A stretch of 56,517 bases of DNA from Verrucomicrobia bacterium UBA3750 (GCA_002371755.1 DFGM01000142.1:1-56517); one strand, 5' to 3'; numbered from the stretch's first letter, positions 29,414 to 56,517 are shown. Numbers and translations: made by a program. Notes: a model not told the origin generated them from the sequence alone.

Positions 29414-29425
29414 GGGTTGTTTGCG

Positions 29426-30730: not shown

Positions 30731-30749
30731 ACACAGGAAAGGAACAAAA

Positions 30750-39254: not shown

Positions 39255-40710
39255 TGTCGCGTGGATTTCAAAAGCGGAATTTTTGTGGAGAGCAAAAGCG
39301 GAATGCTCTTAGACGTTTCCGACCCTTGGATTGGTCGAAAACACGACCCTTGGACGCACTGCATGTTCCGGTTTGTTCAGCACGATCGAGAATGACCCGT
39401 CCACATGCCGGCACAGCCAGCCACGAGTCCCATTCGCGCACCCGGTCGGGCACCACAGTCCGTCGACGACAGCCTTCCCCCCTGGGCCTATGACGATGCC
39501 GCCCCACTGCGCCCACACAAGCTCCCACCATCCGTCATCAGGGATCGGGCGTATCTTCGAGCGTCCCTCGGCAATCGCCTTTTCCCACGCTGCCCTGGGA
39601 GTCATTCGTATTTCGCTGTGCACCTCAAAGTCGTTCCGGTAATCGACGAGCGAATCGATCCTGCCGTTCACAACCTCCAGCGGAGTGTCGACGCCCACCC
39701 CTTCATTCTTGAAATACCGAGGCAGCCTGTCCTGCCAGACCTGATGAACCCGCTCGATCTTCCCCTTCGCGGCAGGCGTGTTCGCGCACATGAAAGTGAT
39801 GCCGTAAAACCTCAACCGTTTTGCGAGCTGGGTGTCGGATCCGTCGTCCTTGCAGAAGAATGTCGCCTTGTCGACATAGATCTGCAGAGGCAGCCCGTAG
39901 CGCATGAAAGCCTTGTAAAACAAGTGCAAATACGAATCCACGCGCTCATGGCTGTACAGCGAGCAGCCCACCTGGAGCCTGCTACAGTCGTCAAGCATGT
40001 CTATCAGATGCAGCTGCGAATGCTCCCTGCCAAAGAAGTAGTCCGGCGTGGCGTCAAGCTGCCACAGTTCGCCGATGCTGGTGCGCTGCCACCGCCTGAC
40101 ATGCGGCGTGACGCGAGGCTTCCCGAGGAAGCTCTTGATGCCATGGTCGATCGCCCAGTGCCGCACCTGCCCCCTGTCCACGGCAAACCCGAACTTGCGC
40201 CCCAGCTCGCTCGCCGCGAACGCGTACGAGTACCTGTCGGCATTGCTGTGCGCGCCAAGGACTCTACGCAGGAACGACTGCACCTCCTCCGGCCACGCCT
40301 GCATGTGATTCCCGCCGGACGATCCCGGAATCCAGGTTTCTGACGCTCCCCTTGCCTTTGCCCTGAGAAAATCCGCCTTCAGCTCATAGAGCCTGGTCTT
40401 TCCGATGCCAAGCTCGGAGAGTGCCTGCACGAGTGAAATGGAGCCTTCCGAGAAGGACTTTACCGTGTCGCGCACGTGCGCGACGCCCAGCCTGTTTGCA
40501 ATCTGTTTTTTCATGGCGGAATTGTATCAAATTCCGCTTTTGCTCTCCACATCGGGCGGCGGCCCCCCTAGGGGGGCCTTAGGGATCAGACTTGGTTGAC
40601 GACACCCAATAAAAACGGCCTAATCTGTCGCTGAAGCCCGCCAAACAATCCCCAAAATGCCATTCCGCTTTTGCTCTCCACAAGTTTCCGCTTTTGCTTT
40701 CACCGCGACA
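39255..40710. mobile_element. IS481-family-like insertion sequence (1456 bp)
   Basis: Single rve-type DDE transposase ORF. ~50-bp imperfect terminal inverted repeats starting TGTCGCG (IRL TGTCGCGTGGATTTCAAAAGCGGAATTTTTGTGGAGAGCAAAAGCGGAATG; IRR reverse complement TGTCGCGGTGAAAGCAAAAGCGGAAACTTGTGGAGAGCAAAAGCGGAATG). Flanked by a perfect 15-bp direct repeat. Confidence 0.85.
39309..40514 (-). CDS. DDE (rve) transposase, IS481-like
   Basis: 401 aa. N-terminal HTH (GIGKTRLYELK). Catalytic-core landmarks WQLDATP, IYVDKATFF and AAKGKIERVHQ. Confidence 0.85.
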   Translation of the reverse strand: MKKQIANRLGVAHVRDTVKSFSEGSISLVQALSELGIGKTRLYELKADFLRAKARGASETWIPGSSGGNHMQAWPEEVQSFLRRVLGAHSNADRYSYAFAASELGRKFGFAVDRGQVRHWAIDHGIKSFLGKPRVTPHVRRWQRTSIGELWQLDATPDYFFGREHSQLHLIDMLDDCSRLQVGCSLYSHERVDSYLHLFYKAFMRYGLPLQIYVDKATFFCKDDGSDTQLAKRLRFYGITFMCANTPAAKGKIERVHQVWQDRLPRYFKNEGVGVDTPLEVVNGRIDSLVDYRNDFEVHSEIRMTPRAAWEKAIAEGRSKIRPIPDDGWWELVWAQWGGIVIGPGGKAVVDGLWCPTGCANGTRGWLCRHVDGSFSIVLNKPEHAVRPRVVFSTNPRVGNV

Positions 40711-40725
40711 CAAAAAATCTAGGGG
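40711..40725. repeat. right copy of the 15-bp target-site duplication
   Basis: CAAAAAATCTAGGGG. Contains the stop codon (CTA on plus = TAG on minus, 40719-40721) of the thermonuclease gene. Confidence 0.8.
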
Positions 40726-41207
40726 CGGGAATTGTATGCCCGTTTGCGCTTGTTGCGCTTGCGCCACTCCTGGGGATTGACAGGATCGGGATTCGCCCAG
40801 AGGCCAAGCTTTTGTTCTCGTGCATCCCGTTCGGCGTCACAGTATGCGACAGTCTTGTCGAACCGTCGATAGTGCCACGCGTTGCCGGTCGCCACCATCT
40901 CAAGGTTGATGTCCAGATCTTCCAGGAAGATGAGCCCTAGGATTCTGCCGTATCTATCCTTCTTGTCGTAGCAGATCCTGACAGTCTTCCCGAAGATCTT
41001 ATTCCTTAAATGTTCCGCAGCCTCCTTGCCGTACTCCTGCCGCGATTCCGGAGCATCGATCCTATCAAGCCGAATCTTCGATTTCTCGCTCCCTGCAAGC
41101 AAATGCACGGTATCGCCGTCATAAACCTTCACCACCCTGCCTTCAATCGTATCGGCAAGGACCGCACCAGCGACAAGCGCTGCAACTATGGCAAATATAC
41201 GCTTCAT
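40719..41207 (-). CDS. secreted thermonuclease (SNase-like)
   Basis: 162 aa from MKRIFAIVAALVAGAVLA (signal peptide). VYDGDTVHL...IRLDRIDAPESRQEYG...DRYGRILG...ATGNAWHY are typical staphylococcal-nuclease-fold motifs. Confidence 0.85.
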   Translation of the reverse strand: MKRIFAIVAALVAGAVLADTIEGRVVKVYDGDTVHLLAGSEKSKIRLDRIDAPESRQEYGKEAAEHLRNKIFGKTVRICYDKKDRYGRILGLIFLEDLDINLEMVATGNAWHYRRFDKTVAYCDAERDAREQKLGLWANPDPVNPQEWRKRNKRKRAYNSRP

Positions 41208-41265
41208 ATGGTTTATTGCTCCTTTTCTGCAACGACTCCTGTGTTTCTCAATGGTAATCTTCATG

Positions 41266-41298
41266 AATATATTCGCACTCTGTCGCAAAATCTGACAA
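41266..41298 (-). promoter_or_regulatory. conserved promoter-like motif, copy 1 (upstream of thermonuclease)
   Basis: Minus strand: TTGTCAGATTTTGCGACAGAGTGCGAATATA. TTGTCA, 19 nt, then an A/T-rich hexamer. Confidence 0.45.
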
Positions 41299-41792
41299 CT
41301 TGCATTGTCAAAAATCTGGTTCTTCGCAAGATTTAACGGGCAAATTGGATAAATATCAACGCGTGGCCGCACGGAGGACGGGAATGCCAATGAGAATAAG
41401 TTCAACAATGCCGACAATGGGAGAACGACAACATCAACAATCGCCTGTGCTTGTGCTTCGGCGCATCACGATATAATTGTCATTATTGGATAAAATTGTT
41501 GCCATTATTGAAAATATCCAATAGGGGGAAACAAGTCAGGCAAGGGTGCCGGGAGTTGAGGGTGGAGTAAGAGAAACTATCTATATGATGGAACGACAGG
41601 CCGTATCTGCATCATGCCCATCATGGATAGTGCATGGTGCGAATGAAATCGGAATACTGCTGTGCGGAACAATCGCCGACAACATGCCAATGAGCGAAGT
41701 TGAGCGCAAGTTCGCCGCACGGGCCAGCAAAGCAACTACAACAACAAGCCATTTCAAATCATACCCCATGTTTGACCCTTTACAAGTCACCG

Positions 41793-43253
41793 TCAATTCA
41801 CGCACAGGTCTTCGCTGCGGTCGCTAGGGATAAGGTTGCGTTTCATGACCCGGGCGGTCGATTCGCGCATTTCCTTTGCGTCCACAATCACCTTGATGTC
41901 CCATTCGTTGCCGCGATCCAGCCCGAAGCACACGAATCCATCCCTGCACGAATCGACGAGCTCCACGAGATGCCGGAGATTGCGCACCTTCACCCCGTTG
42001 ACGCTCCGCACCAGCGATTTGTCACAGCCTATATACCCCTCGATGCACTTGTCGGCGAAGCAAAACGAAATCACGACGGCCTCTTCATGGTCGAATTCCT
42101 TGTCACGGAATAGATCGTCGTGGAATTTCGCGTCCGACTGCACCATGTAGTCGAGCGAAATTGTCGTAAACACAAAGCCTCCATACACGAAATAGTCGGG
42201 CTTTTCATCATACATCCACCCGCGGATTGGCGGATTCTTCTTCATGGCCGTAATGGAGGTTTCAACGACGGCGCCGTCGCGATACACTTTCACAGGTATC
42301 TTCTCCCCTATCTGGCGGACATAGAGAGGATAGTAAAGCGAACGAGGTTCTCCTCCCTTGAGGCGGATTCGGCCGTTGTTGGAGACCTTGTATCCATCAA
42401 CCTCAAGTATAATATCATCCGTGCGAATCGAATCTGTTCCCAAGACCGAGGCAACATCCTGGACAATTACGCCCGTACGCCCCGAATCCATCTTATAATA
42501 GCGCCGTTTCGCAGGGCTTTCCATTTGATCCTCCGAAAACAATAAATCAGGAAAACCATCTACTCTCCCATCCCGAATGTCTACAAGGAAGTGCCGTATG
42601 ATGTCCGAAGGAATGATGAACCCAAGAGCCTCTCCTTCCTCCTTGCCAAGGCCCTGGAACGCAATGCCGGCAATTTTCCCGCTTCTCATATCCAGCACAG
42701 GGCCTCCGCTATTGCCAGGGTTGATGGCCGCGTCAACCTGGATTCCAAGAAGATACGTCCAGCCATGGGAATAACTGATGTCCTCTATGCGGGAGACAAT
42801 GCCGCGCGTATAGGAAATATCCTCGCCGCCAAGTGGATAGCCGACGGCCAGCACATCATCCTGCACATGCGGCGTTTCGCCTATCTCCATGGGTTCAATA
42901 CCCTCCATGAACGCGGGATCGTCGACTCCGACCAGCGCCAGGTCGGCATCATTGTCTACAAATTTAACCGAACCATGGTAGAGCGTGTCTTCGTTGTGCT
43001 TGCGAACACGGATATAACAGGAATCCGTCACGCAGTGGGCGCAGGTGAGGATAAGCCCCCTGTCAATTACTGCACCCGATCCGGTCCCGCCTGACGTGCG
43101 ATTGGCCCACGGACAGCAGATATCCGGCTTGGCGGTCGTAACCTCAAGTTTGACGACTGCGTTGAGCGGATTGATTTCGCCATCCTGGACTGCCGCTTCC
43201 TGTGCAAACCCAGGCATTGCCGCAGCGACCAAACCTGCAACCATAGTTCTCAT
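41793..43253 (-). CDS. secreted Deg/HtrA-type trypsin-like serine protease with C-terminal PDZ-like region
   Basis: 486 aa. Signal peptide. Catalytic His (LTCAHCV), Asp (DADLALV) and Ser (GNSGGPV). Confidence 0.85.
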   Translation of the reverse strand: MRTMVAGLVAAAMPGFAQEAAVQDGEINPLNAVVKLEVTTAKPDICCPWANRTSGGTGSGAVIDRGLILTCAHCVTDSCYIRVRKHNEDTLYHGSVKFVDNDADLALVGVDDPAFMEGIEPMEIGETPHVQDDVLAVGYPLGGEDISYTRGIVSRIEDISYSHGWTYLLGIQVDAAINPGNSGGPVLDMRSGKIAGIAFQGLGKEEGEALGFIIPSDIIRHFLVDIRDGRVDGFPDLLFSEDQMESPAKRRYYKMDSGRTGVIVQDVASVLGTDSIRTDDIILEVDGYKVSNNGRIRLKGGEPRSLYYPLYVRQIGEKIPVKVYRDGAVVETSITAMKKNPPIRGWMYDEKPDYFVYGGFVFTTISLDYMVQSDAKFHDDLFRDKEFDHEEAVVISFCFADKCIEGYIGCDKSLVRSVNGVKVRNLRHLVELVDSCRDGFVCFGLDRGNEWDIKVIVDAKEMRESTARVMKRNLIPSDRSEDLCVN

Positions 43254-43681: not shown

Positions 43682-44530
43682 TCACGCTTCCAAGCACCAT
43701 TTCCATGCCGGGACGATTTTGACTCCTTCTGTCGTTCGCTCTTCATCCCATGTCACGACCGTACAATCGTCAACATTGATTTCATCTCTTGCTGTTTTCA
43801 GTGCAGATAATTCGCGGACTTCCGTGTCATGAGAAGTCTTCTCCCATGACACCTGGATCAAACGGCGTTTCTTCGTCACCCTGTCCGTGACAAGAAAATC
43901 CACCTCTTCCCCCTTTTTTGTGTTGTAGTACTCTATTATATTGTCGCCGCGCCGCAAGGCGAGGTAGACAAGATTTTCCAGAAACCATCCACGCGCCGCA
44001 TCGTTTTTCGGCGTCACCGCCCGCGCCAGCCCCGTATCCACCAGATAGAATTTGTCTGGATTCATTCGCCGCACGGAAAGCGAATCCGTATTTATGGGAA
44101 CGCGATATATCAGATAAGCCTGCTCAAGCCAATCGAGGTAGTCTGAAATGTATTCCCGGTTGTCTGAAACCCCAAGACCTTTGAGAACACCTGAAATGGC
44201 ACGTGTCGATATCTTGTGCGCAAAGTTGTGCTTTATGTATTCAAGTGTATAACGCAGCGACTGCACGCTTGGCACATCGTGGCGTTCAATCACATCTCGA
44301 TATAAGACTGCATCCACATAACCTTGAAGCATCTTTGTCCGTATGCGGCGGTCTTCACCCTGGACATCCGGGAAGCCGCCCTCGTCCAGATAGCGTTCCA
44401 TCGCATGGCGCAAGACTCCAGACATTCGCGATGAATATGGCGCGGACGGAACGGATTTCACCAACGAATTGAAGCGAAGGAATTCGGCAAAGGACAAAGG
44501 GAACACCTCTACATCGATCGAACGACCGCG
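43682..44530 (-). pseudogene. 5'-truncated AAA_14/DUF4143-family ATPase gene (only the C-terminal ~280 aa remain)
   Basis: The ORF begins mid-family at ...GRSIDVEVFPLSFAEFL, the motif that normally follows the AAA domain. In-frame stops lie immediately upstream, and no Walker A region is present. Confidence 0.6.
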
Positions 44531-45748: not shown

Positions 45749-45937
45749 TTACTCAGATATACGATCCTCCCGCAAAATTCTGACAAGGCCTATTCTCGAC
45801 ATGCCTGCCGCCGCATTTTGCAGAATCCGGTGGTTGTCCAGCCTCAAATCAATTCCCGCCTCTGCCAGCACCTTGCGCGCGTCTTTCCTGCCAAGCTTGA
45901 TCAGCCGTAACGCGGTTTCGGAAGACGAGACGAAGAC
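45749..45937 (-). pseudogene. remnant of the 3' end of a second patatin-like gene
   Basis: 45885-45934 is 42/50 nt identical to 47273-47322, the 3' end of the intact patatin gene. It translates to VFVSSSETALRLIKLGRKDARKVLAEAGI..., compared with DTSPETARRLIELGRKDALEALKCAGFLK in the intact gene. No upstream catalytic part is present. Confidence 0.65.
45756..45786 (-). promoter_or_regulatory. conserved promoter-like motif, copy 3 (upstream of the MreB-like fragment)
   Basis: Minus strand: TTGTCAGAATTTTGCGGGAGGATCGTATATC. TTGTCA, 19 nt, TATATC. Confidence 0.45.
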
Positions 45938-45950
45938 TATCTACATACGG

Positions 45951-47213
45951 TCATCTTTCAGACTCTGTCGCATCCCGCCCCTTATCTCCTCCCTTGCGTC
46001 GCCACGGGAGTTTAAAGCGTTTCGCCGCCGGAGGCTGATTTGTTGCGAATCCTTCTGGCACATCTTTCCTATCGTGCTTTCCCAAACGTCCTATCGCATT
46101 CGTGACTGATGCCTTCAAGTCAATCTTCGTAAAGTCGACCTCATCAGCCCGATGCTTCGGTTGGCTACCCAAGCCGACTTTGGGCATCTTATACAAATCA
46201 GGTTCAGCAAGCACCTTTCTTACATGTTCAATGCGCTCGTCATTTACTGGATGTGTACTAAGGAGAGGGATTAATACACTTGGCTTCTGCGGATCAATCT
46301 TTTTAAAACTCTCAAACAGCCTCTCCGCGCCCTCCGGGTCGAATCCTGCGCGCGCAAGATAGCGGACACCCAGTCGATCGGCCTCCAACTCATTACGACG
46401 GCTACGTGGCAAGATGAAACCAACACTTCCGCCAAGACCGTAAGCAAGCCGAACCAACGACACCCCCTCGCCCGAATCGAAAATTGGCATAACCTTCGCA
46501 AGCCATTCCTCAAATGCGACACCACCAGCCGCACCCATCAGCGCAAGCGTCACGGATTCATTCCCGTGCCGCGCCGCAGCATGCCCCAATTCATGCGCAA
46601 GGATGGCCGCCAGAAGCGAGTCATCTGCAATAGCTTTCAGCGTTCCTGTATTCATAAAAACCGTGCCATCAGGAAGGCAACATGCATTGACGGAATCGTC
46701 TCTGAGAATATGTATTTCAGGAATGGAATCAATTTCCGGAACGACGGCAACGAGGCGCTCGACAATTGCTGCAATACGAGCAATATTGTCGGGATTGTCG
46801 TCAAAGAAGCCTTTCTTTTCGCACTCTTCGACATAACGGCGAGCAATGACAGCTTCATCGTTTGCCGATAGGACAAGCATGCGCGTCCGTTTATGCTCGG
46901 GCACTCCGGCGATAAGGCGAGTAGGATGCGCCTTGGCGTTTGCGACGATGTTCAAAGCATCTATCCCCAAAGCCTCCAATTCATCAACAAGTCGTTCCTT
47001 GATGCGCCTTGCCACTTCCTCCATCGACTCAGCACTATGCCAGTCGGGGATTGTAGCTGTTTGATTCTTCGCCGCGGATTGAGATTCCGCGTCCGCGACA
47101 TCAGATGGGGCTTTTATAAAACTATAAAGCGCCCAAACAAATCCTATGAGGACAACCAACCCCAACACCCCTCCCGATAAAGATGCCCCCTTCTGCTTTT
47201 CTGGATTCTCCAT
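45951..47213 (-). CDS. membrane-anchored M48-family zinc metalloprotease
   Basis: 420 aa. N-terminal TM helix (GVLGLVVLIGFVWALYSFI). HExxH in LAAILAHELGHAAARHGNE. Downstream ELEADRLG. Confidence 0.85.
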   Translation of the reverse strand: MENPEKQKGASLSGGVLGLVVLIGFVWALYSFIKAPSDVADAESQSAAKNQTATIPDWHSAESMEEVARRIKERLVDELEALGIDALNIVANAKAHPTRLIAGVPEHKRTRMLVLSANDEAVIARRYVEECEKKGFFDDNPDNIARIAAIVERLVAVVPEIDSIPEIHILRDDSVNACCLPDGTVFMNTGTLKAIADDSLLAAILAHELGHAAARHGNESVTLALMGAAGGVAFEEWLAKVMPIFDSGEGVSLVRLAYGLGGSVGFILPRSRRNELEADRLGVRYLARAGFDPEGAERLFESFKKIDPQKPSVLIPLLSTHPVNDERIEHVRKVLAEPDLYKMPKVGLGSQPKHRADEVDFTKIDLKASVTNAIGRLGKHDRKDVPEGFATNQPPAAKRFKLPWRRKGGDKGRDATESER

Positions 47214-47229
47214 AACGCCTCCTCTTGCA

Positions 47230-48363
47230 TCATTTCAAGAATCCAGCGCACTTCAACGCCTCCAGCGCATCCTTCCTGCCAAGCTCGATCAGCCGCCGCG
47301 CGGTTTCGGGAGAGGTGTCGAACATACCTTCCCAGCCACCGAACGACCCGCCGATGTCTTCGGAAGGTATGATTTCCATGAGTCGGACACCTTTCTTTTC
47401 TGCAGCGCTTCGTACACGATCACGCTGCGCAGGATTGATATGCCGCTCGTCTTTAAGATACACCACGATCACCGTCTTGACTTGTGGATGATTATCAAGG
47501 ATCGGAGCTATTGGCACATTGTCCCCGCCCTTTTCCTCCCATCCGCCATCGACATACGCTTCACCCTTGACGCTGAATGTACCGAAAAACACTGGCACCG
47601 ATGCAGAGGCGCAAATCATTTCAATGCGAGCTTCCGCGTCCTCATTGTTCAACATAAAGACGTCCTTGCGGAATTCATTGCCTGGCAACTTGCGAAGCGC
47701 CGTTGCATATGTCTGCGGAGCGGCATCTTCCCACTTGGCAGGCAGTATTTTGCGGGCGACATCTTGCAGTCCCTTGGTTGCGAGAAATCCGTCTGCCCTG
47801 CCATCATCAAGAAAACCGCACACCGCCGCGCACAAACGGCTGCCGCCATGTCTCAGCAACAACTTCTTGGCGGAAACAGAATAACATCTATCGACAATCT
47901 CGGAAATAATCGACTCCGGGAGAGCATTTGTTGGAATATTCCTTCTCTTCGCTTCTGCTATGATATCCTCTTCAATATGGCGTGTCCTCAACAATGACTC
48001 CCGCTCTCGTTCCTCCGGCGTGCCAAACATCTCAAGCGCATTTGCGCTGACTGACAATATTCCGCCTATCTCATCCAACCAAACGGATCTTATCGCATCC
48101 GTATTCGGAACCGAAGCGAACAACGCCGCATTGATCGCGCCTATGCTCGTCCCTGATATCGCACAAATATCGTCAGCCACATGAGTTTCCTTCAACGCTT
48201 CCCATACACCGACTTCATACGCACCTTTCGCGCCGCCACCGGAAAGGATAAGGCCTATTTGAGACTTGCTGCTAATGCAAGCTGACATACAATTATTCAA
48301 CGCCAGCAACAGCGAGAAAATCACCGCGATAATTATCTTGCTATTCCGCATAAGCGCATTCAT
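47230..48363 (-). CDS. secreted patatin-like phospholipase
   Basis: 377 aa. Signal peptide. Oxyanion GLILSGGGAKGAYEVG, nucleophile elbow GTSIG, and catalytic Asp in YVDGGW. Confidence 0.85.
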   Translation of the reverse strand: MNALMRNSKIIIAVIFSLLLALNNCMSACISSKSQIGLILSGGGAKGAYEVGVWEALKETHVADDICAISGTSIGAINAALFASVPNTDAIRSVWLDEIGGILSVSANALEMFGTPEERERESLLRTRHIEEDIIAEAKRRNIPTNALPESIISEIVDRCYSVSAKKLLLRHGGSRLCAAVCGFLDDGRADGFLATKGLQDVARKILPAKWEDAAPQTYATALRKLPGNEFRKDVFMLNNEDAEARIEMICASASVPVFFGTFSVKGEAYVDGGWEEKGGDNVPIAPILDNHPQVKTVIVVYLKDERHINPAQRDRVRSAAEKKGVRLMEIIPSEDIGGSFGGWEGMFDTSPETARRLIELGRKDALEALKCAGFLK

Positions 48364-48388
48364 AGTTTATTTTGATATCGACATGCTG

Positions 48389-48772
48389 TTAATGTTCACC
48401 GCTGCTTTTGAATATAACTTTATATTTTGGACTTGGGCCTGCTGGCTCCCTAATCCATTCAACTCTATCCGCGTCAACACGGCGCAAACGTTGTGGCTTG
48501 GACTTGGCCAAATCGTCTTTATCATACACCTTCCGATTCGTCCTATTTGGCAGAGAATACAGCGTTGACTTGCCTCTGACAATTCTTACATTGTCATTAT
48601 CAGCGACCATTATTATTTTGATTCCCTCTTCAGCAACATAAGTGCCAGACGGGATGTGTCCGATACGATTGAAATAAATAATGGCAACCACCACAACCGC
48701 TAAAACCGCCACAACCGCGCAGATATTGCGCTTTAAGCAAAAACGTGTAAGAATTCTCGCTGAATCCATCAC
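48389..48772 (-). CDS. N-terminally anchored small protein, unknown function
   Basis: 127 aa. One TM helix (ICAVVAVLAVVVVAIIYF). 4-nt overlap with the upstream gene. Confidence 0.65.
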   Translation of the reverse strand: MMDSARILTRFCLKRNICAVVAVLAVVVVAIIYFNRIGHIPSGTYVAEEGIKIIMVADNDNVRIVRGKSTLYSLPNRTNRKVYDKDDLAKSKPQRLRRVDADRVEWIREPAGPSPKYKVIFKSSGEH

Positions 48773-50082
48773 TTGTCCTCCACATCAGTTGTTATCACAC
48801 TATGTAACGTCACCGCCCCCCCATCTATGTGCACACGCATTTCATGCTCTGGGTCGTTAAGGCTCAATTGTTCTACCTTGGGAACTGCGCCCCTGTAGTT
48901 ACACAGCGTCGCTCTCATCTCTGCCTTAGTGCAAACTCTATTGTCTGTATCAATCGTAAATACAACGAAATTGTCATGTTCGTTCTGCATATATGTTGTA
49001 AACTCGGGCCGATGTTCACTTTCCTCGGTTCTTGGCTCGATTTTGAGATCTGTAGACACCATCGCCCCATCAACCTTTCCGCGGGGCAAGCTCTTAACTG
49101 TCACAACTCCATTATCGTCCGACACTACAGTTAGCACGAGAACACCCGACTTAAACGAAAACGGCTTCCTGTTTTTGCTCTGCAACGGGAAAAATGATTC
49201 CAACATTTCGGAATCGATCGTCCATACGTCGCCTACTTCACGCGTCTCCTGCTGCCCATAGATGGCATAAGTCATCATTTTCGCTTCTGCCTGTGCAACA
49301 CAGAATCCAAGATCAAGTTTAGATTCTTTGGACCACCCTGAAGCGGCACCAGTTCCAACACTTTGCGAACTAATTTTCGCTCTATCATTCGGCGAAAGGT
49401 TCATAAGGAATTCATTTGGAACATCACGGACATCCTTTTTGAAGACATCCATACTATACCGCATATCGGCTTTGAACGCCTCTCTCTGTTTCCAGTCAAG
49501 AAAATACCAACTCAATGAATCCAAGAAATTACCATCGGCCGTAAATATCTCTCTAAACACAAAATCTGCATCCTGCATCTTTTCCGCAATTTCGCGGTTC
49601 GACACCTCTTCACAACGAGGTCCGAACAACACACGACGTAACCATGATGGCTCTGCATCAGTAAAAACAGTCCTACCTGCCGCATCTAATGGCTGAAATG
49701 AGACATCAGCATTGGCATATCTTCTAAAGACAGAACCGGCGTTTTTATTCTCATAATATGCCCCAAACGTTTGGTAATTTAGATAGCATGAATACATCCC
49801 CGAAAAAGGTTTAGAATAATAATGCTCTTCTACTTTCTCTGGATGATCGGCCTCACAAAGCCACAAGGTCCAAAAATGCCTTTCTTTGTGTGCCTTGCGT
49901 ATTTTTTTCACATCTAAGACAATATTATCAAGGCGCATCTCATATCTTGATTCCACGCTGTAATATTTTCCAGGTCGCCACGGCGGGTTGACCTTCCCGT
50001 AATGGATAGAATCCGATGCCATCAGCATGGTTGCCACACTAATGATGGCCGCAGCAAGTGAGAATCTTCTACCTGAGTTCAT
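48769..50082 (-). CDS. secreted protein of unknown function, paralogue B
   Basis: 437 aa. Signal peptide (FSLAAAIISVATMLMA). The C-terminal ~150 aa share GDVW[TV][IV]D and GKVDGA[MT]VSTDL with ORF 52451..53893. Confidence 0.7.
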   Translation of the reverse strand: MNSGRRFSLAAAIISVATMLMASDSIHYGKVNPPWRPGKYYSVESRYEMRLDNIVLDVKKIRKAHKERHFWTLWLCEADHPEKVEEHYYSKPFSGMYSCYLNYQTFGAYYENKNAGSVFRRYANADVSFQPLDAAGRTVFTDAEPSWLRRVLFGPRCEEVSNREIAEKMQDADFVFREIFTADGNFLDSLSWYFLDWKQREAFKADMRYSMDVFKKDVRDVPNEFLMNLSPNDRAKISSQSVGTGAASGWSKESKLDLGFCVAQAEAKMMTYAIYGQQETREVGDVWTIDSEMLESFFPLQSKNRKPFSFKSGVLVLTVVSDDNGVVTVKSLPRGKVDGAMVSTDLKIEPRTEESEHRPEFTTYMQNEHDNFVVFTIDTDNRVCTKAEMRATLCNYRGAVPKVEQLSLNDPEHEMRVHIDGGAVTLHSVITTDVEDK

Positions 50083-51451
50083 TGAATTGCCTCCTCATCT
50101 TTAACAAGACTATTGTAATGCCGGCATAAATGGCACACCAGAAAAGCAATGCCAGCGCCTCCACAGCGGCCATTCTACGACAGAATGAAATTAGAGACCC
50201 GACGCCACCTACATCCTCAGACGCGGCTTGGTGAAACTTTCCTGGACTTCCGCACAACTCTTCCTCATCTTCTCCTTCAAGCTTCACGAGGACATGTCTC
50301 TTCCAATTGCCTGTAGAAATTCCTCCACCGATCCAATGATTGCTCAGATTGCAATCTTTACCTTCCCATGAAACAACATACTGCCCATTCGTCTCGATCA
50401 CCTTTGCTAGGCCAATGCAGACAGGGCATTTGCAGAAATCGGATGCCATGTTAGTATGTTCAGCAAGACGCTCTGGATTATGCCATGGACGCATTTCACC
50501 GTCATATCCCAGCGACGCCTCTAATTTGAGGCAAGGTATGCGCGCAATGTTGAAAAAGTATCGTTGCGGCAGCAGAAACGAAAGTTGCTCAACCATACCG
50601 CCATCTTTCCATCGTGTCTGCCGCCGACCTTCTCTATGCAGCCCATCATATGTCTTGGCATCCTGGTACTGTCGCCCCTTCTGACGAATAATCAGATCAA
50701 TAGGAGCGAACTCTCTTTCCGTCCGGGAATCGCCGCCGCACCCGACAGTTCCCGTGTGCGAGCAGATGCAGCACGCGACAATAAGCAATACTGCCGCATT
50801 TTGCGACACATGCGGCGTAGGACATATTGCGCTCACGAGCAGTCCAATTGAGACTCCTGACGCGACGGCCATCGTCACAGCACCGAGATAAAACCCTGAA
50901 CACGTTACAAACCACAGAAGATTATTCGTTCCTCCTGCATGATTTGCTGCATTCATTGCTGCACTCAACCCTTGCAAATTATATGCCGTCCCGCCCTTTA
51001 GCATTGCACCAACCTGATTGACAAAAGCATTGCCATCGTCCGGAGCCACAAAAAGGAACCCTAATGGCTTGATGACTGCTCCAATTTCCCATAAACTCCA
51101 CAAGAACAACAACGAGATGCAGACTTGCAGCATGGCGAAGAAGAACCCTGCCACAAAATGCGCTATGTAATGCCGCACAACACCCCTGTGCAGGCCGAGC
51201 ATCCAATACGACCATTCTCCAGAGTTTACCTCTCCATTGAAAGCCTGGCACGTTCCGAACAATCCACACCAAAAGGCATAGATCGTCCCAAAGAACAAAA
51301 ACGCCTCTCCTTGCGCATCTGGTGCGGAACGAGCAAGAAAAGAAGACACCATTATAAATGCCACCATGAGCGGAAGTACGACAAACTCAAAAACTGTCCG
51401 CCACAAGCCTCTATTCCAAGTAGTAGAGACAACTCTTCTAAGCTCAAGCAT
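50069..51451 (-). CDS. ABC-2-type permease-like membrane protein with large Cys-containing insert
   Basis: 460 aa. About 6 hydrophobic helices, and a ~170-aa soluble insert before the last helix (CKCPVCIGLAKV...). Overlaps the ATPase gene by 8 nt. Confidence 0.7.
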   Translation of the reverse strand: MLELRRVVSTTWNRGLWRTVFEFVVLPLMVAFIMVSSFLARSAPDAQGEAFLFFGTIYAFWCGLFGTCQAFNGEVNSGEWSYWMLGLHRGVVRHYIAHFVAGFFFAMLQVCISLLFLWSLWEIGAVIKPLGFLFVAPDDGNAFVNQVGAMLKGGTAYNLQGLSAAMNAANHAGGTNNLLWFVTCSGFYLGAVTMAVASGVSIGLLVSAICPTPHVSQNAAVLLIVACCICSHTGTVGCGGDSRTEREFAPIDLIIRQKGRQYQDAKTYDGLHREGRRQTRWKDGGMVEQLSFLLPQRYFFNIARIPCLKLEASLGYDGEMRPWHNPERLAEHTNMASDFCKCPVCIGLAKVIETNGQYVVSWEGKDCNLSNHWIGGGISTGNWKRHVLVKLEGEDEEELCGSPGKFHQAASEDVGGVGSLISFCRRMAAVEALALLFWCAIYAGITIVLLKMRRQFNELR

Positions 51452-52439
51452 GATGCGACCTCCTTTCAGTTGCGTTTGCTTCGCACACGCCTTTTACCTG
51501 TTCAAATAAAGACGATCCATCATTTGCAAAAGTTCTTTCTTTATAATCCTCAAAAAACTGACGCCAGACATCCTCTGCCTTCCCATCAAAAACTACACGA
51601 CAATTAACTTCGTCGTTTTTATGAACTCCGTGTACCACGCACACACGGTCAATAACACGCTCGCGCCTCTCGCCACTTCCGACAACATCATCAAGACATT
51701 TCATCTCATGCGTTGTAAGTACGGCACCCACGCAAATTCCGTCACTGCACAGTTCGTCGACAGCATTTTTAACTTCTCGTACAAAATCAATTGCATTTAC
51801 GGGGTCAAATCCTGTTGTCGGCTCGTCCAATACAAGCAACCCCGGTCTTCTGGATATCTCCATTGCAACGATCCTTGCAATCAATTCCGCTCTTCGACGC
51901 TCCCCTCCCGAAAGTTCGGCAATATTCTTGTCCAAAACATCTGTAAGACTATATTTCTCAAACTTGTCTCTGAATCTTTTGCCGATTTCCTTTTTCAAAA
52001 TATGATTTCTTGATGCCAGAGCCTCTACTACTTGCAACATCATATCCAGCGCATTTTGATGTTGCGCCCTGGCAACGGGAAAGAACTGCGGCAAATAGAA
52101 CAGTTCCCCAGACTTCCGCAACTGTCTGCGCCACCTTGCGGCAGAACAGACATTGCGGAATGCATTTGTGGGCATCAATTCGCCAAATTGTGAAAACTCA
52201 GCAAAATTCAGCCTCCCGCCCACACCAAAGGCAGGGCAACCCATGATTAAACTAAGCAACACGCTTTTGCCGCAACCGCTACCGCCGATAACGGCGGTTA
52301 TTTCGCCTTCTTTCAGGCAGAGATTAGGCAAAGAAAGCGAAAGCCTTTCTTTTTTCCCAGACTCCAGCCTGCTTTCCCCAGAGAGGCTGAAATTAGATAT
52401 ATTAATAAGGCATTCTGACTTTTCTGTACCATTGACCAT
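51444..52439 (-). CDS. ABC transporter ATP-binding protein
   Basis: 331 aa. Walker A GGSGCGKS, signature LSGGERRR, Walker B LLVLDEPTTGFD. Confidence 0.88.
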   Translation of the reverse strand: MVNGTEKSECLINISNFSLSGESRLESGKKERLSLSLPNLCLKEGEITAVIGGSGCGKSVLLSLIMGCPAFGVGGRLNFAEFSQFGELMPTNAFRNVCSAARWRRQLRKSGELFYLPQFFPVARAQHQNALDMMLQVVEALASRNHILKKEIGKRFRDKFEKYSLTDVLDKNIAELSGGERRRAELIARIVAMEISRRPGLLVLDEPTTGFDPVNAIDFVREVKNAVDELCSDGICVGAVLTTHEMKCLDDVVGSGERRERVIDRVCVVHGVHKNDEVNCRVVFDGKAEDVWRQFFEDYKERTFANDGSSLFEQVKGVCEANATERRSHHA

Positions 52440-52450
52440 GATGACTCTCC

Positions 52451-53893
52451 TTATTTCCTATACTCGTCAAGGTTTACTACCTCACCTGTGATAGTGAGGT
52501 CGAGCGAAGCTTCTCCTGCAGACTTGAAGCCGTCAAGTAAGGAAAGTGAAGGCAACGCACCAACTTCATCCGCATTGAGATTCATTTTTCCAAACACGAG
52601 ATGCCCTGAGACTTTGTCAACGAGCATATATATATCCGATTTGCCGCTGTCGTACTTAGCCCAGAAACGCCCTCCCATCGGTCTCTCGTCATAGACAAGA
52701 TCCGTTGAAACTGTAGCCCCGTCAACCTTTCCGCCTTTCACAACCTCGATCTTACGAACGTCATATCGCTTCGGCATGCTGGCAGCCCTTGCAGGTTCCG
52801 AGTAATATCCATCATCTCCTTCCTGATCCTCGACGTAGTGCACGACAGCGCACCCTCTGAATGCACCTTTAAGGTCAGGGTGGAGGAAAGAATTGAAGAA
52901 TGCACCGTCAACCACCCACACATCGCCAGGTTTGCGAACGGCTGCATCAAACAGGTCACTCGTCATGGAAAACGCCTCGCGCTTCACCAGGGCGTCTATA
53001 TCGGAATTCGCAGGAGACCCCTGCCGCATATAGACATCAAACGCCTCAACCGATGCTCTGGGGTCGACATCTGCCGATTTGAGTGATTTGATTTCGGAAA
53101 TGGTGCGATGGTACTTTCCATTGGCGGCAATCGCAACCTTGCGCCCATTTACATTATTGCTGAACTGCATTGCCATAGCCATTACCTTCTTTCTCTCATC
53201 CTCTCCCAGTCCCTTGGCTATTAGCGTGTTTTCCCCGATATTCAACCGGCCTTCCGTATCAAAAGTACCGACATTATCCTTCATCCAATCAGCGCTTACC
53301 TCATATCCTGCCTCACCCCATGTCGAAAGGAACTTCCCTATGGCGGGGCTGAAGAAGCCAACAGCATTATAGAACAAATGCCGAGACTCTCTGCCTAATG
53401 CGTCAACTTCTACCGCTTTACCGATAGCCTGCTTGACAATTTGACTCTTAGGCACGACATCGCCACCCCAAGTACCGTCACTCATAACGTACTGGTAATC
53501 GCGCACCAGACGCAGCATTGGCATTTCATGGTACACAAATGTCTTTGAAATCGCCTTGCCGGAGAAACTGCCCTTTTCCGCAACTCGTACAGAATTGACA
53601 GTCAAATCTGCAAACCATGCTTTCAGCCACTTTGTGATCTTACCTCCTGTCATGTCCTCGTTTTTCTCTGTTTTCAATTTAGCTTCATACAGATACTCAG
53701 CTTGCGTCATATACACTTCGCCCTTGTGCCATGACTTAAGCCATTCCTTTGTTGCTTCGTCACGGCCTACCGTGCGTGTACGATCACGCTCGAACATCGG
53801 TTTCTCAACCTGAGAAGAAACATCTGCAAAAGTCAATGTTGATGCGACCAATGTTGCAGCAACAAGAGCGCCTTTTGTGATAGCGTTTTTCAT
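52451..53893 (-). CDS. secreted protein of unknown function, paralogue A
   Basis: 480 aa. Signal peptide (GALVAATLVASTLTFA). C-terminal domain shared with ORF 48769..50082. Confidence 0.7.
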   Translation of the reverse strand: MKNAITKGALVAATLVASTLTFADVSSQVEKPMFERDRTRTVGRDEATKEWLKSWHKGEVYMTQAEYLYEAKLKTEKNEDMTGGKITKWLKAWFADLTVNSVRVAEKGSFSGKAISKTFVYHEMPMLRLVRDYQYVMSDGTWGGDVVPKSQIVKQAIGKAVEVDALGRESRHLFYNAVGFFSPAIGKFLSTWGEAGYEVSADWMKDNVGTFDTEGRLNIGENTLIAKGLGEDERKKVMAMAMQFSNNVNGRKVAIAANGKYHRTISEIKSLKSADVDPRASVEAFDVYMRQGSPANSDIDALVKREAFSMTSDLFDAAVRKPGDVWVVDGAFFNSFLHPDLKGAFRGCAVVHYVEDQEGDDGYYSEPARAASMPKRYDVRKIEVVKGGKVDGATVSTDLVYDERPMGGRFWAKYDSGKSDIYMLVDKVSGHLVFGKMNLNADEVGALPSLSLLDGFKSAGEASLDLTITGEVVNLDEYRK

Positions 53894-53919
53894 TTCATGA
53901 TTCCTTTCTTGCGTTTTGT

Positions 53920-54669
53920 TTAGTGTTGCCCCTCTCCCTGGGGATAATACAAGTTGTCAAAAGTCTTTGTCACGTATTTCGCTAAATCACCAGTTGTCAA
54001 CCGACGCTTTAATTCATCGCGTGTTGCACTCTGGAGATTACGGATCTCTTGGACCACAGTTGCAGCAGCCTTAAGCTGGAACACTGGCCACTCCTTGTCA
54101 AAAGTGAAATCATTCTGAAGATTAACAGGGCCGCATAATGCAATGAAACACGCGTCGTCCCCCGCAAGCTTCTCTGGAACAGAAACAATTACAACAGAAA
54201 AACGATCTCGCTCTCCTGTTTCAAGTTTCACAGGAAATACTCCAAATCGATATCTGGCAATCTCAAGCGTTCCTGTTGCTGGTTTTTTGACTTTATACGA
54301 CACTGGTTCTGGTGTGGCATTGTCGTCATCAATCCTTGACGCCCATATTGCCGGTTTCAGAACAAATCCATTTTTCCCGATACCCGTTCCATCCCCCATC
54401 TCACTGATCGAGGCGGCCAAAGCCTTGTATCTATACGCATAATTCCGCTCGAAACTCCAAATAGCACGCATGTCATCTACTATCTCTTTACACGGAACAA
54501 CTCTTGGCTCTGGCACGGGGAACAATATACAACATCCAGAGCATGGTCCAAGGAACAAACATGCACTCACCGTAATCATCAACATCAACCCAAAGGCAAT
54601 TAGGACTCCCTTTCCATCGGTCAATTTCTTCCGTTTAACCTGTTCCTCAATTGTGTTTTCTTTATTCAT
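53920..54669 (-). CDS. N-terminally anchored protein, unknown function
   Basis: 249 aa. TM helix (GVLIAFGLMLMITVSACLFL) followed by a Cys cluster (GPCSGCCILF). Confidence 0.65.
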   Translation of the reverse strand: MNKENTIEEQVKRKKLTDGKGVLIAFGLMLMITVSACLFLGPCSGCCILFPVPEPRVVPCKEIVDDMRAIWSFERNYAYRYKALAASISEMGDGTGIGKNGFVLKPAIWASRIDDDNATPEPVSYKVKKPATGTLEIARYRFGVFPVKLETGERDRFSVVIVSVPEKLAGDDACFIALCGPVNLQNDFTFDKEWPVFQLKAAATVVQEIRNLQSATRDELKRRLTTGDLAKYVTKTFDNLYYPQGEGQH

Positions 54670-54691
54670 GATTTTCCTTTTTTGTCTGTAG

Positions 54692-55285
54692 TTAATTGTT
54701 CACTCCAAGCTCTTCGAGCATCTCCTTTGCACCGGCGTGGCTTTGGGCGGCGGCGAGGCGCAGGAGCTGGATTGCTTGGCGACCGGCGCCTTGTTCCTTG
54801 CTGGCGGGATGATGCGGGTTGAGATAGAGCTTTGCAAGATTGTACTCCGCATCGGCGTAATCTTGCTTCGCCGCTTCCTTCAACCATTTCACGGATAAGC
54901 GCTGGGCTTCTTTGTCCGAAAACCTAGCATAGTAGATGCCAAGATTGTACTGCGCTTGTGCGTGGTTCTGCGCCGCCGCCTTGCCCAGCCATTCGACGGC
55001 CTTGTCGTCATCTTGCTCGACGCCAAGACCGTTCATATAGAAAAGCCCCATCTGGCATTGCGCGGCGGCGAACCCGCCATCCGCCGCCTTGCGCGTCCAC
55101 TTCGCCGCCTCCTTCATGTTCTTTGCTACGCCGCGCCCATCGCGCAACATCTCCGCATAGCAGAACTGCGCCTTGGCGTCGCCACTCTCTGCCGCCGCCT
55201 TGGCATCATCGGATACAGCCGCCCTTACCGCGTGCACGCACAGCGCAAAAAGCAGCACCAAAGCAATATTATTGCATCTCTTCAT
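54692..55285 (-). CDS. secreted Sel1-repeat (SLR/TPR-like) protein
   Basis: 197 aa. Signal peptide. Four to five Sel1 units (AQFCYAEMLRDGRGVAKNMKEAAKW; AQCQMGLFYMNGLGVEQDDDKAVEW; AQYNLGIYY...). Higher GC than its neighbours. Confidence 0.85.
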   Translation of the reverse strand: MKRCNNIALVLLFALCVHAVRAAVSDDAKAAAESGDAKAQFCYAEMLRDGRGVAKNMKEAAKWTRKAADGGFAAAQCQMGLFYMNGLGVEQDDDKAVEWLGKAAAQNHAQAQYNLGIYYARFSDKEAQRLSVKWLKEAAKQDYADAEYNLAKLYLNPHHPASKEQGAGRQAIQLLRLAAAQSHAGAKEMLEELGVNN

Positions 55286-55400
55286 TAAAGCAACCTCTAT
55301 GTTTGTTCTAACATCACCGATTTTGCGTGCTAGGATTCATTCTTATTGCCAATTGGTCTTCGCATGAAATGTGATATACACGCCAAAGCACCTGTGGTTT

Positions 55401-55691
55401 TCATTCGAACACATGCACATAGTTGAGTATTCCCAAAGTCACCAATTTATCATTAATATATCCCAATGAAAATACTCCATAACTCTTTCTATGCAAACTG
55501 TCGATAGTTGTTGTAACATAAGCATCCTTGAGAACAAGTATGGATAACTTATCAACGAAGTTACCATTTTGATAATATTCATTCAAAGCCTTTTCAGCGT
55601 ATGGACGCAATGCCTCTTTATGCGTGTCAATTCTAGGATTAAAGACAAGCAAAACTATCAAAATCACAATATATTTTATGGTTTTCATCAT
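55401..55691 (-). CDS. small N-terminally anchored protein, unknown function
   Basis: 96 aa. Hydrophobic N-terminus (IKYIVILIVLLVF). Confidence 0.55.
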   Translation of the reverse strand: MMKTIKYIVILIVLLVFNPRIDTHKEALRPYAEKALNEYYQNGNFVDKLSILVLKDAYVTTTIDSLHRKSYGVFSLGYINDKLVTLGILNYVHVFE

Positions 55692-55719
55692 AACAAACCT
55701 CTATGCGTCATCGCCGACA

Positions 55720-56481
55720 TTACGAAAAGAATCCCTTAAATCCAATTTTACACATGGATTCCGTGACTAAGGAGCCCGTCTCTGCCAAATCATCCTTTGC
55801 ATATTTTCGAAATCCTTCAAGAGCACTACGTCTCGACTCAGAAGAAACGCCCTTGAGGAGATATGCTCGTGTCAATTCACCACCTTTGAGTACAACTGCA
55901 GATCCGGCAACACTTTGCACAAGCCGGACAGCAACACCTCCGACAAATTCTGAAACATCGAACAAATCACACAACTCCTCCAGGCTTGCAGCAAAGAACG
56001 ATGCAAACACTATGTGCGCCCAGATCGATATTACGGTTCTAGCTTTTGGTCGAAAACCATATATGCGGAAAGTTTCATATACCAACCTCGATTTCCAGAC
56101 GAACATTCCAAGACCATCACCGATCGAAGAAGAAGACACAGCCATTGTGAGGCCGGCCATAGCGGCAATTTCCAATGCTTTCTTCCTTGCAGCCTGCTCA
56201 CGCTTCTCCAAGAGTTCCTTCACCGTCTTGTCAATCTCCGCTGGTCTCTCCAACGCTGATTGAAGCACGTCACGGTCTTCTTCTGGGCATGATTCGGCAG
56301 CACACATGGCTTGTGCGATAATTGCTCCTGCCTCTTCGCGTATACACCCATCTGCGGCTGTCAGTTGCTGAATCACACATGGCTCCACCAGCGGGATGTC
56401 TCGAATTGGGCAGACCATAAACACATAGACAACACCGATTGGCACCAAAAGGAACACAGCGACCACAATAAACTTTATCAA
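55720..56481 (-). CDS. membrane protein, DUF697/YcjF-like (tentative)
   Basis: 253 aa. N-terminal TM helix, and a central region (AAMAGLTMAVSSSSIGDGLGMFVWKSRLVYETFRIYGFRP) resembling the DUF697 core. The tracked start is a TTG, so the true start is uncertain and the operon may continue beyond the window. Confidence 0.5.
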   Translation of the reverse strand: MIKFIVVAVFLLVPIGVVYVFMVCPIRDIPLVEPCVIQQLTAADGCIREEAGAIIAQAMCAAESCPEEDRDVLQSALERPAEIDKTVKELLEKREQAARKKALEIAAMAGLTMAVSSSSIGDGLGMFVWKSRLVYETFRIYGFRPKARTVISIWAHIVFASFFAASLEELCDLFDVSEFVGGVAVRLVQSVAGSAVVLKGGELTRAYLLKGVSSESRRSALEGFRKYAKDDLAETGSLVTESMCKIGFKGFFS

Positions 56482-56517
56482 ACAAAGAACAATTGACGCC
56501 CAAAGATTTGTCGTTTG

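Follow-up and report, generated by a model that had tools for sequence, protein, structure and literature searches.

The DNA analysed here, referred to as the window, is a complete 56,517-bp contig of Verrucomicrobia bacterium UBA3750 (GCA_002371755.1 DFGM01000142.1:1-56517), a Kiritimatiellae genome. Its last part carries a block of genes built around a predicted ATP-binding cassette (ABC) transporter and a set of secreted or membrane-anchored proteins, which is the subject of this study (Table 1). Eleven co-oriented open reading frames (ORFs), numbered in the direction of transcription, lie on the minus strand and are separated by junctions of 28, 115, 22, 26, 11, -8, -14, -4, 25 and 16 nt, as an earlier note on this DNA had listed and as our recomputation confirmed. 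The window is 100% identical to a longer metagenomic contig, L001, at L001 3393-17459 (window position = 59910 minus L001 position), and this overlap bears out a second point of the earlier note, that the unit may start beyond the window edge. The contig breaks inside gene 1, which in full encodes 396 aa (L001 3000-4190) and is gene 2 of the real operon; a 253-aa ORF with a TTG start was rejected as the true gene 1, being an artefact of the contig end. Upstream of it in L001 lies a gene for a 728-aa Dynamin_N GTPase, so the co-oriented unit comprises 13 genes, of which the block in the window represents the eleven at the 3' end. The contig end falls within a seemingly perfect tandem repeat of 32 aa in the DUF697-like gene (SASDINKIQGQESAQ.SFRIESEQQTTNLWAS x2; window 56400-56517, L001 3225-3417), which is probably the cause of the assembly break. 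On the 5' side of the dynamin gene, L001 has ~530 nt of non-coding DNA and then a HipA toxin gene (L001 3-278; L016 8200-9453 in the related locus described below).

The GC content of the block is 0.45-0.52, compared with 0.57-0.66 across most of the contig, and an N-terminal hydrophobic segment or signal peptide is predicted on every product but the ATPase; the earlier note had described both properties correctly. In a simple scan of the block, no promoter- or terminator-like site was listed in any internal intergenic gap, promoter-like sites occurred at chance level and terminator-like sites were only ~2 standard deviations above chance. Matches above cut-off in Pfam and NCBIfam were confined to Sel1 (three matches), ABC_tran, Patatin and Peptidase_M48, and ORFs 2, 4, 5, 7, 8 and 9 had no match in Pfam, NCBIfam or PADLOC scans.

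Table 1. Features of the block, its borders and the shared leader. Positions are those of the window unless another contig is named.
Feature	Position	Strand	Remarks
DUF697-like membrane protein (gene 1)	55720..56517	-	3' two-thirds of 396-aa gene; cut by contig end; hydrophobic segments
96-aa N-terminally anchored protein (ORF2)	55401..55691	-	no family assignment; outside conserved core
Secreted Sel1-repeat protein	54692..55285	-	5' anchor of exchangeable cassette; Sel1 E 6e-21; signal peptide
ORF4, lipoprotein-like or N-terminally anchored periplasmic protein	53920..54669	-	core gene; present in 11/11 loci
ORF5, secreted protein, 480 aa	52451..53893	-	core gene; unannotated family
ABC ATPase	51444..52439	-	core gene; ABC_tran (PF00005) E 8e-16; no specific subfamily
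Six-helix permease, predicted ABC-2 (type V) fold	50069..51451	-	core gene; 175-aa predicted periplasmic CxCxxC insert between transmembrane helices 5 and 6
ORF8, secreted protein, 437 aa	48769..50082	-	core gene; C-terminal domain in common with ORF5
ORF9, small anchored protein	48389..48772	-	core gene; lipoprotein with canonical lipobox in most orthologues
Secreted patatin-like phospholipase	47230..48363	-	frequent add-on directly after ORF9; Patatin E 4e-22
M48 metalloprotease, N-terminally anchored	45951..47213	-	BepA/LoiP type without tetratricopeptide repeats; variable add-on; Peptidase_M48 E 2e-27
Exchangeable cassette, ORF4 through M48	45811..54704	-	blastn, L001 against L016
C-terminal half of MreB-like gene, 229 aa	45029..45718	-	MreB profile positions 144-325 only
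HtrA/DegP-type protease	41793..43253	-	recurrent neighbour; adjoins cassette in L007, L008 and L013
Leader copies	L001 371-779; L004 983-1396; L012 5832-6252; L013 5864-6289; L020-L071		

Comparison with other genomes separated the block into layers. We compared eleven distinct loci (window/L001, L004, L005, L006, L007, L008/9, L010/11, L012, L013/14, L015 and L016), and all of them contain ORF4, ORF5, the ATPase, the permease, ORF8 and ORF9 or an ORF9-like gene. The order of these core genes is the same down to 23-31% identity in every locus but L006, a Prosthecobacter locus in which ORF5 comes before ORF4 and the transporter genes are fused. Around this invariant core, the patatin gene forms a frequent add-on, and the dynamin or YcjX genes with DUF697, the Sel1 gene and the BepA-like M48 gene form a layer of variable ones. 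As judged from gene content, the block is a composite: a rare six-to-seven-gene ABC cassette with a secreted lipase, joined to a dynamin module and a protease. The earlier note had taken the eleven genes for a single system, and this did not hold, the M48, Sel1, 96-aa and DUF697/dynamin genes being variable add-ons; its description of an accessory, envelope-located gene set is supported. It had also named a lack of synteny elsewhere as fatal to its reading, and the homologues proved syntenic in all 11 distinct loci. The co-occurrence that it had asked about is found for ORF5 with ORF8 and for the ABC pair (11/11 loci), not for the patatin (six loci) or the M48 protease (the window and L008/9). 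The 96-aa protein outside the core has counterparts in L016 (99% identity) and L048 (44%). Among named records the cassette is restricted to Kiritimatiellia and the one Prosthecobacter locus, and sample titles suggest gut and rumen as the habitat. No description of such a locus was found in the literature on DUF697 or patatin together with dynamin or Kiritimatiellae.

The ATPase belongs with the ABC nucleotide-binding subunits, as shown by its PF00005 match and by intact Walker A (GGSGCGKS), signature (LSGGE), Walker B (LLVLDE) and H-loop (TTH) motifs. Every NCBIfam match was far below cut-off, including those to the LptB and LolD models, and the closest solved relatives are LptB, OpuCA and ABCG8 (9e-13 to ~1e-8). 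The permease matched no curated ABC-2 membrane family in Pfam or NCBIfam, and the divergent L016 allele gave a sub-threshold match to ABC2_membrane_2 (E 3e-4). Its AlphaFold2 model is confident (predicted local distance difference test score (pLDDT) 82.7, predicted template modelling score 0.86) and consists of an N-terminal amphipathic helix and six transmembrane (TM) helices. All top Foldseek matches of this model are to ABCG2, ABCG1, ABCG5/8, ABCG25 or NosY, with a probability of 0.9-1.0 and TM-scores of 0.3-0.4 when normalised to the query and up to 0.54 when normalised to the target. The model thus supports an ABC-2, or type V, fold, and the earlier ABC-2-like call is borne out at fold level. 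The Cys-containing insert of ~170 aa that had been recorded at the same time is also real: it spans residues 237-413, between TM5 and TM6, and contains a nearly invariant CxCxxC motif. Given this position in the AlphaFold model, the insert is predicted to be periplasmic. Relatives of the permease form 40 clusters, all unnamed or called 'hypothetical' save the most distant one, a Prosthecobacter ATPase-permease fusion named ATP-binding cassette domain-containing protein.

The remaining core proteins are predicted to lie outside the cytoplasm, and signal peptides or lipoboxes are kept across orthologues of ORF4, ORF5, ORF8 and ORF9 as well as of the patatin. ORF4 orthologues contain a lipobox-like VSAC sequence and, in several cases, a Pro-rich or poly-Pro linker; no relative of ORF4 was found in Pfam, NCBIfam or the PDB. 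The ORF5 family comprises 29 clusters among 5.8 billion proteins, an exhaustive HMMER profile search returned 54 clusters among 1.84 billion representative proteins, and a scan of 40 aligned members revealed no shared Pfam domain. A match to SpaA in a single 1321-aa member of this family was borderline and was judged unrelated. The ORF8 gene overlaps the permease gene by 14 nt. ORF5 and ORF8 had been presented in the earlier note as two paralogous secreted proteins, which is correct for a C-terminal domain of ~170 aa (hhalign probability 98%, E 3e-14) and does not extend to the remainder. Profile searches against PDB sequences gave nothing credible for ORF5, ORF4, ORF8 or the permease. One ORF8 match, to PaxB (E 0.006), was judged spurious because it falls on a beta-rich region of ORF8 and PaxB is all-alpha. 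For ORF5, the AlphaFold2 model is mediocre (pLDDT 68.6), and its best Foldseek matches are ApoB, MTP, vitellogenin and LIMP-2/CD36, which have lipid-binding or lipid-transfer folds (TM-score ~0.25). These matches offer a hint, at the level of the predicted model, that ORF5 resembles lipid-binding proteins.

A comparison of L001 with L016, a contig of a near-identical strain, delimits the cassette. The two contigs are 97.7% identical over L001 1-5205, from HipA to the end of Sel1, show no nucleotide match over L001 5206-14099 (8.9 kb) and are again 96% identical over L001 14100-14239, 92 nt upstream of the MreB-like fragment. At the same site L016 has a homologous cassette that encodes proteins 22-31% identical to those of the window and includes neither patatin nor M48. 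Conversely, the cassette of L012 is 89% identical to that of the window and is located at a different chromosomal site. The GC content dips over the cassette in most loci. These comparisons indicate that the cassette is exchanged horizontally as a unit between genomes. No plasmid or phage carrying ORF5 or the permease was found. The MreB-like fragment is probably a remnant or scar at the 3' (right-hand) border of the cassette insertion, and the last position of the cassette varies, being occupied by patatin, by patatin and M48, or by a 274-aa protein with no assigned function.

The patatin is a frequent add-on. It scores 79.7 bits against PF01734 (cut-off 27.7), retains the GGGAKG, GTSIG and DGG motifs, which are kept in five orthologues, and has a predicted signal peptide in the orthologues also; its closest solved relatives are PlpD, ExoU and VipD. 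The gene follows ORF9 in six of the 11 loci (window, L007, L008, L010, L012 and L013) and is absent from L005, L006, L015 and L016, and L004 is cut before that position. Since the core is present without patatin, effector export as the earlier note had formulated it is not the core function. The M48 protease has intact HELGH and ELEADRLG motifs and recurs in one other locus only (L008/L009). Its best curated match is the protease domain of BepA (E 3e-20, profile positions 40-255 of 483); the score is 72 bits against a cut-off of 570 for BepA itself, only the protease part aligns, and there is no tetratricopeptide repeat (TPR) region. Sel1 proteins recur often among the loci, outside the invariant core. 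In L007 (8490-9941) Sel1 repeats are fused to an ORF4 domain in a 483-aa protein, and in L005 (16176-18350) a Ser/Thr kinase carries five fused Sel1 repeats and lies beside a gene for an extracytoplasmic function (ECF) sigma factor. At the end of the Prosthecobacter operon (L006 14599-15141) lies a gene for a 180-aa protein that matches the C-terminal half of PqiA/YebS (E 3e-16), which is the sole link of these loci to a known lipid-transport family.

The dynamin matches PF00350 with 42 bits (cut-off 27) and has G1 (GMLKAGKS) and G3 (DTPG) motifs, which places it, by sequence, among the bacterial dynamin-like proteins; no solved relative was found by sequence search. Its partner, the gene 1 product, has a DUF697 match of 24-25.5 bits, just under the cut-off of 27.7, and the counterpart in L004, whose partner is a true YcjX, scores 55.8 bits. 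The L016 version of the DUF697-like gene encodes 364 aa. In the loci compared that have dynamin, the DUF697-like gene always follows it. The pairing of a dynamin or YcjX nucleoside triphosphatase (NTPase) with DUF697 recurs in three different arrangements, namely dynamin and DUF697 (window), dynamin, small GTPase, YcjX and DUF697 (L004) and YcjX and DUF697 downstream (L008). Dynamin and DUF697 genes also stand alone, followed by an unannotated gene of ~370-400 aa; L017/L018 have dynamin, DUF697, a 399-aa gene and a full or split MreB gene, without the ABC core. The module resembles YcjX-YcjF and the dynamin-like proteins (LeoABC/Eleos, DynA) in that a cytoplasmic P-loop NTPase is encoded beside a DUF697 protein, and in L004 and L008 the corresponding place is taken by genuine pairs of YcjX (DUF463) and DUF697. 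It differs from YcjX-YcjF in that dynamin replaces YcjX in the window-type locus and DUF697 is below cut-off, and the Leo matches are family-level only: PADLOC gave weak matches to LeoBC (3.6e-9, 34 bits) and LeoA (7e-7, 27 bits), there is a single dynamin, and the DUF697 partner has no PADLOC match. YcjXF has been linked to psp envelope-stress loci (PMC3041696, PMC9239133). Many of the dynamin homologues (P0132-P0164) bear precomputed matches to PF08310 and PF01476. These are presumably LGFP-repeat and LysM wall-binding domains, which would be unexpected in a cytoplasmic dynamin.

Upstream of the first gene in L001, ~2.6-3.0 kb beyond the window end, is a leader of ~430 nt that is 75-79% identical among L001, L004, L012 and L013 despite the different genes that follow it. 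Another 52 copies were recovered from metagenomes by a pattern scan. A structure of 55 base pairs, with 97.8% of cells paired, is supported by the 46 distinct copies; shifted-register controls were only 33-48% paired. Double changes occur at 15 pairs, compared with 6.3 +/- 1.5 in shuffles (0/500 shuffles reached the observed value). Two or three haplotypes of a single helix account for much of this covariation, and the number of independent events is therefore small. No credible Rfam match was obtained for L001 1-1000 at E up to 1. From its 5' end the leader contains, in order, TTGTCAGA-N16-CGTATA, hairpins, a terminator-like GC-rich hairpin with a U-tract, and TGGTATAAT, and its 3' core of ~250 nt has the covarying helices. 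We take TTGTCAGA-N16-CGTATA to resemble ECF-type promoters. The 3' core is complementary to 14 nt in the 5' part (CUGAGAGAGCCCGG), which suggests alternative pairings, with UCUCAGGC as a candidate for two of them.

The leader is usually found directly after a pair of Ser/Thr-kinase and ECF-sigma genes and is followed most often by Sel1 proteins, then by varied cargo, and it is therefore not specific to the ABC cassette; core families do not follow any of the 52 metagenomic copies within the available flanks. The 5' module of the leader is also found ahead of htrA (L007, L013), a kinase gene and the Sel1-ORF4 fusion, and its 3' half ahead of stand-alone dynamin. Kinase and ECF-sigma genes adjoin the core itself in L005, L013 and L016, and a kinase gene alone does so in L006. 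Signalling through kinase-coupled ECF sigma factors is established, and in ECF43 the kinase/sigma pairing controls envelope or antagonism functions (PMC13147305). The present loci are like ECF43 (EcfK/PknS, EcfP/PknT) in having adjacent Hanks-type kinase and ECF-sigma genes beside the cassette or leader in many cases. They are unlike it in region 2.2 of the sigma factors, which keeps an acidic DADDxVQ motif and lacks the QTTA motif diagnostic of ECF43. From these neighbourhoods we infer that the operon may be regulated by the neighbouring kinase and ECF-sigma genes.

No profile match linked the proteins to Lol, Lpt, Mla, Gld, CBASS or any PADLOC defence system. The second outcome that the earlier note had named as fatal, placement in an already characterised transporter or lipoprotein-sorting pathway, thus did not arise in the profile searches either. 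Because the defining components were sought and not found, the cassette belongs to none of NosDFYL, Mla, FtsEX, Lpt, Lol, MCE, CBASS or Eleos; in Pfam and NCBIfam scans, no Lpt, Lol, Mla or MCE component was detected among the eleven proteins. In its way of working it would come closest, by analogy, to NosDFYL and other ABC-2 envelope complexes that have periplasmic partners. NosDFYL resembles the cassette in pairing a separate ATPase with a type V permease of six TM helices and in adding a lipoprotein and a docked protein on the periplasmic side. NosY, one of the structures that the permease matches best (target-normalised TM-score ~0.5), sets a precedent for periplasmic work as opposed to solute transport. 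The differences are that the cassette has unrelated periplasmic partners, with no NosD beta-helix, NosL or N2O-reductase context, and that NosY is without the 175-aa CxCxxC insert. The ABCG and ABC-2 exporters (ABCG1, ABCG5/8, ABCG2, Wzm-Wzt, TarGH) share the N-terminal amphipathic helix, the set of six TM helices and, between TM5 and TM6, an extracytoplasmic loop that in ABCG2 also bears three Cys. However, sequence similarity to them is below detection, the loop of the cassette permease is a whole domain, four dedicated periplasmic or lipoprotein partners are present, and glycan or teichoic-acid genes are absent.

Two further comparisons are functional. Mla together with PldA, which serves outer-membrane lipid homeostasis in Proteobacteria, offers an analogous arrangement, in which an inner-membrane ABC complex, its periplasmic or lipoprotein partners and an envelope phospholipase would act on the same membrane problem; yet no MlaE, MlaD (MCE), MlaC, MlaA or PldA was detected here, and the cassette is rare, accessory and laterally exchanged. 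FtsEX-EnvC (PcsB, RipC) may be similar in that cytoplasmic ATP hydrolysis gates potentially self-destructive extracytoplasmic hydrolases; the terminal hydrolase slot of the cassette varies. FtsX, by contrast, has a type VII fold and controls peptidoglycan hydrolases, and the cassette has no FtsX- or EnvC-like domains.

Our preferred reading, which we hold tentatively and with somewhat less than even confidence, is that the locus encodes an envelope complex, regulated by a signal and exchanged horizontally, whose task is either the handling of membrane lipid or the control of periplasmic hydrolases. The unit would be transcribed on an envelope signal, and the ABC-2 complex together with ORF4, ORF5, ORF8 and ORF9 would form an envelope-spanning assembly. 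This assembly might spend cytoplasmic ATP to move membrane lipid or a lipid-anchored substrate; alternatively, it might drive conformational work in ORF4, ORF5, ORF8 and ORF9, as NosFY and FtsEX do in their systems. Either activity could supply, position or license the periplasmic patatin lipase and, in this genome, the M48 protease as well, while the dynamin/DUF697 pair would remodel or reseal the inner membrane from the cytoplasmic side. The net role would be regulated remodelling or repair of envelope lipids. The conserved core order, the modelled permease fold, the periplasmic signals, the link to patatin, the weak matches of ORF5 to lipid-binding folds, the PqiA-like protein of the Prosthecobacter operon, the NTPase pairs, the gene fusions, the kinase/ECF neighbours and the shared leader, with its 5' module also ahead of htrA, all point in this direction. 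Several observations weigh against it. The core occurs without the patatin in L005, L006, L015 and L016, so the lipase does not define the core function. The Foldseek E is only ~0.1 for the permease, and the matches of ORF5 to lipid-type folds are weak (TM-scores of ~0.25 from a model of pLDDT 68.6). Neither a leader copy nor the htrA promoter module was found inside the window, and most of the 52 metagenomic leader copies precede other cargo. Finally, lateral exchange and the replacement of whole alleles are features expected of loci for conflict or surface variation more than of genes for housekeeping lipid homeostasis.

In the main alternative, the ABC-2 complex and its four periplasmic or lipoprotein partners would form an export or surface-display route specific to the Planctomycetes-Verrucomicrobia-Chlamydiae (PVC) bacteria that delivers patatin or other hydrolases to the cell surface, vesicles or medium, for use against competitors or protist predators; ORF9 or ORF4 may then be a chaperone or immunity protein. 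The patatin has a predicted signal peptide and effector-type solved relatives (PlpD, ExoU, VipD), the variable last position of the cassette resembles a cargo slot, dynamin could drive vesicle formation, and the swap of cassettes between near-identical strains, the changing contexts and the lower GC content would fit an arms race. In Xanthomonas, moreover, a type VI secretion system is used against amoebae under the control of kinase-coupled ECF sigma factors (PMC13147305). We consider such deployment, the strongest rival to our reading, unlikely but not remote: Pfam and NCBIfam scans revealed no outer-membrane channel, membrane fusion protein, TolC-like component, secretin or known secretion component, ORF5 and ORF8 are not predicted beta-barrels and have no C-termini of the outer-membrane-protein (OMP) type, the core is without a recognisable effector in L005, L006 and L015, and no immunity-like gene pattern was demonstrated. 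A broader version, to which we give a still smaller chance, would see the cassette as a PVC-specific trans-envelope apparatus in which an ABC-2 motor, a proline-spaced anchor, secreted paralogues and a lipoprotein deploy interchangeable hydrolases under kinase, ECF and RNA-leader control. Patatin, M48 or other cargo would reach the cell surface or vesicles, and arms-race alleles would diversify against competitors, predators or phages. Anti-phage or abortive-infection defence, with dynamin acting as in Eleos/LeoABC and patatin as a membrane-lysing effector as in CBASS CapV, appears very improbable. The weak PADLOC matches of dynamin to LeoBC/LeoA and of patatin to phospholipase effectors, the exchange of the cassette between strains and an island-like neighbourhood (HipA, DUF4143 ATPase remnants, an integrase, ATPase_2 arrays) would agree with it. 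On the other side, no PADLOC model matches any core protein; the patatin scores 28 bits against a CBASS_lipase cut-off of 200 and has a signal peptide, unlike cytoplasmic defence patatins; a cyclase, a sensor and a second dynamin of the Leo type are all missing from the locus; searches of plasmids and phages yielded no carrier; and the phyletic range is narrow, being limited to PVC bacteria.

Two other alternatives we each regard as improbable. By analogy with the LanFEG/LanI or Bce-type modules of Firmicutes, an ECF-regulated ABC-2 transporter with periplasmic accessory proteins might remove, or shield the cell from, an antimicrobial that acts on membranes, for example a bacteriocin, a host peptide or a constituent of bile. 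A permease of ABC-2 fold with an extracytoplasmic domain, lipoprotein partners, coupling to ECF-sigma and kinase genes, putative co-regulation with htrA and a gut or rumen habitat (per record titles) would all suit such a pump, and allelic diversity could track diverse antimicrobials. It would leave no role for a conserved secreted phospholipase or for two large secreted paralogues, however, there is no similarity to the LanFEG, BceAB or MacB families, and the system is very rare (40 permease clusters). Alternatively, the ABC complex might handle lipoproteins or OMPs in envelope protein quality control or biogenesis, with M48, Sel1 and HtrA as the degradative arm, in the manner of the sigma-E regulon. 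The BepA protease domain as the best curated match of M48 is consistent with this proposal, the TPR-like Sel1 protein could supply the missing TPR part, and HtrA is a recurrent neighbour with a promoter module in common. But M48 is present in two locus types only, Sel1 lies outside the invariant core, no Lol, Bam, Lpt or Tam components were found in Pfam and NCBIfam scans, and the conserved enzyme is the patatin, which acts on lipids.

In the gut and the rumen, Kiritimatiellae and their PVC relatives are abundant, and the biology of their envelope is almost unstudied. The locus defines five co-inherited families without annotation in public data, grouped around an unusual transporter of predicted ABC-2 type and repeatedly associated with a secreted phospholipase, with envelope proteases and with NTPases of the membrane-remodelling kind. 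The leader, with its ECF-type promoter motif and an Rfam-unmatched covarying structure, provides a concrete experimental handle. If the ABC complex does gate or deliver periplasmic hydrolases, the idea of a 'mechanotransducing ABC' system (FtsEX, NosFY, LolCDE) would extend to lipases.

The surroundings of the unit contain island-like debris. In the window, this consists of an rve integrase (39309-40514), a secreted SNase-like nuclease (40719-41417) and a DUF4143 ATPase remnant (43682-44506). In L013 (15052-21395) the cassette is followed directly by at least four paralogous ATPase_2/AAA genes of ~472 aa each. Elsewhere in the window, at 29417-31958, two adjacent large ORFs contain Listeria-Bacteroides repeat (Flg_new) and phage-tail-fibre repeat domains; they lie in a region with a GC content of ~0.61 and are unrelated to the envelope block.

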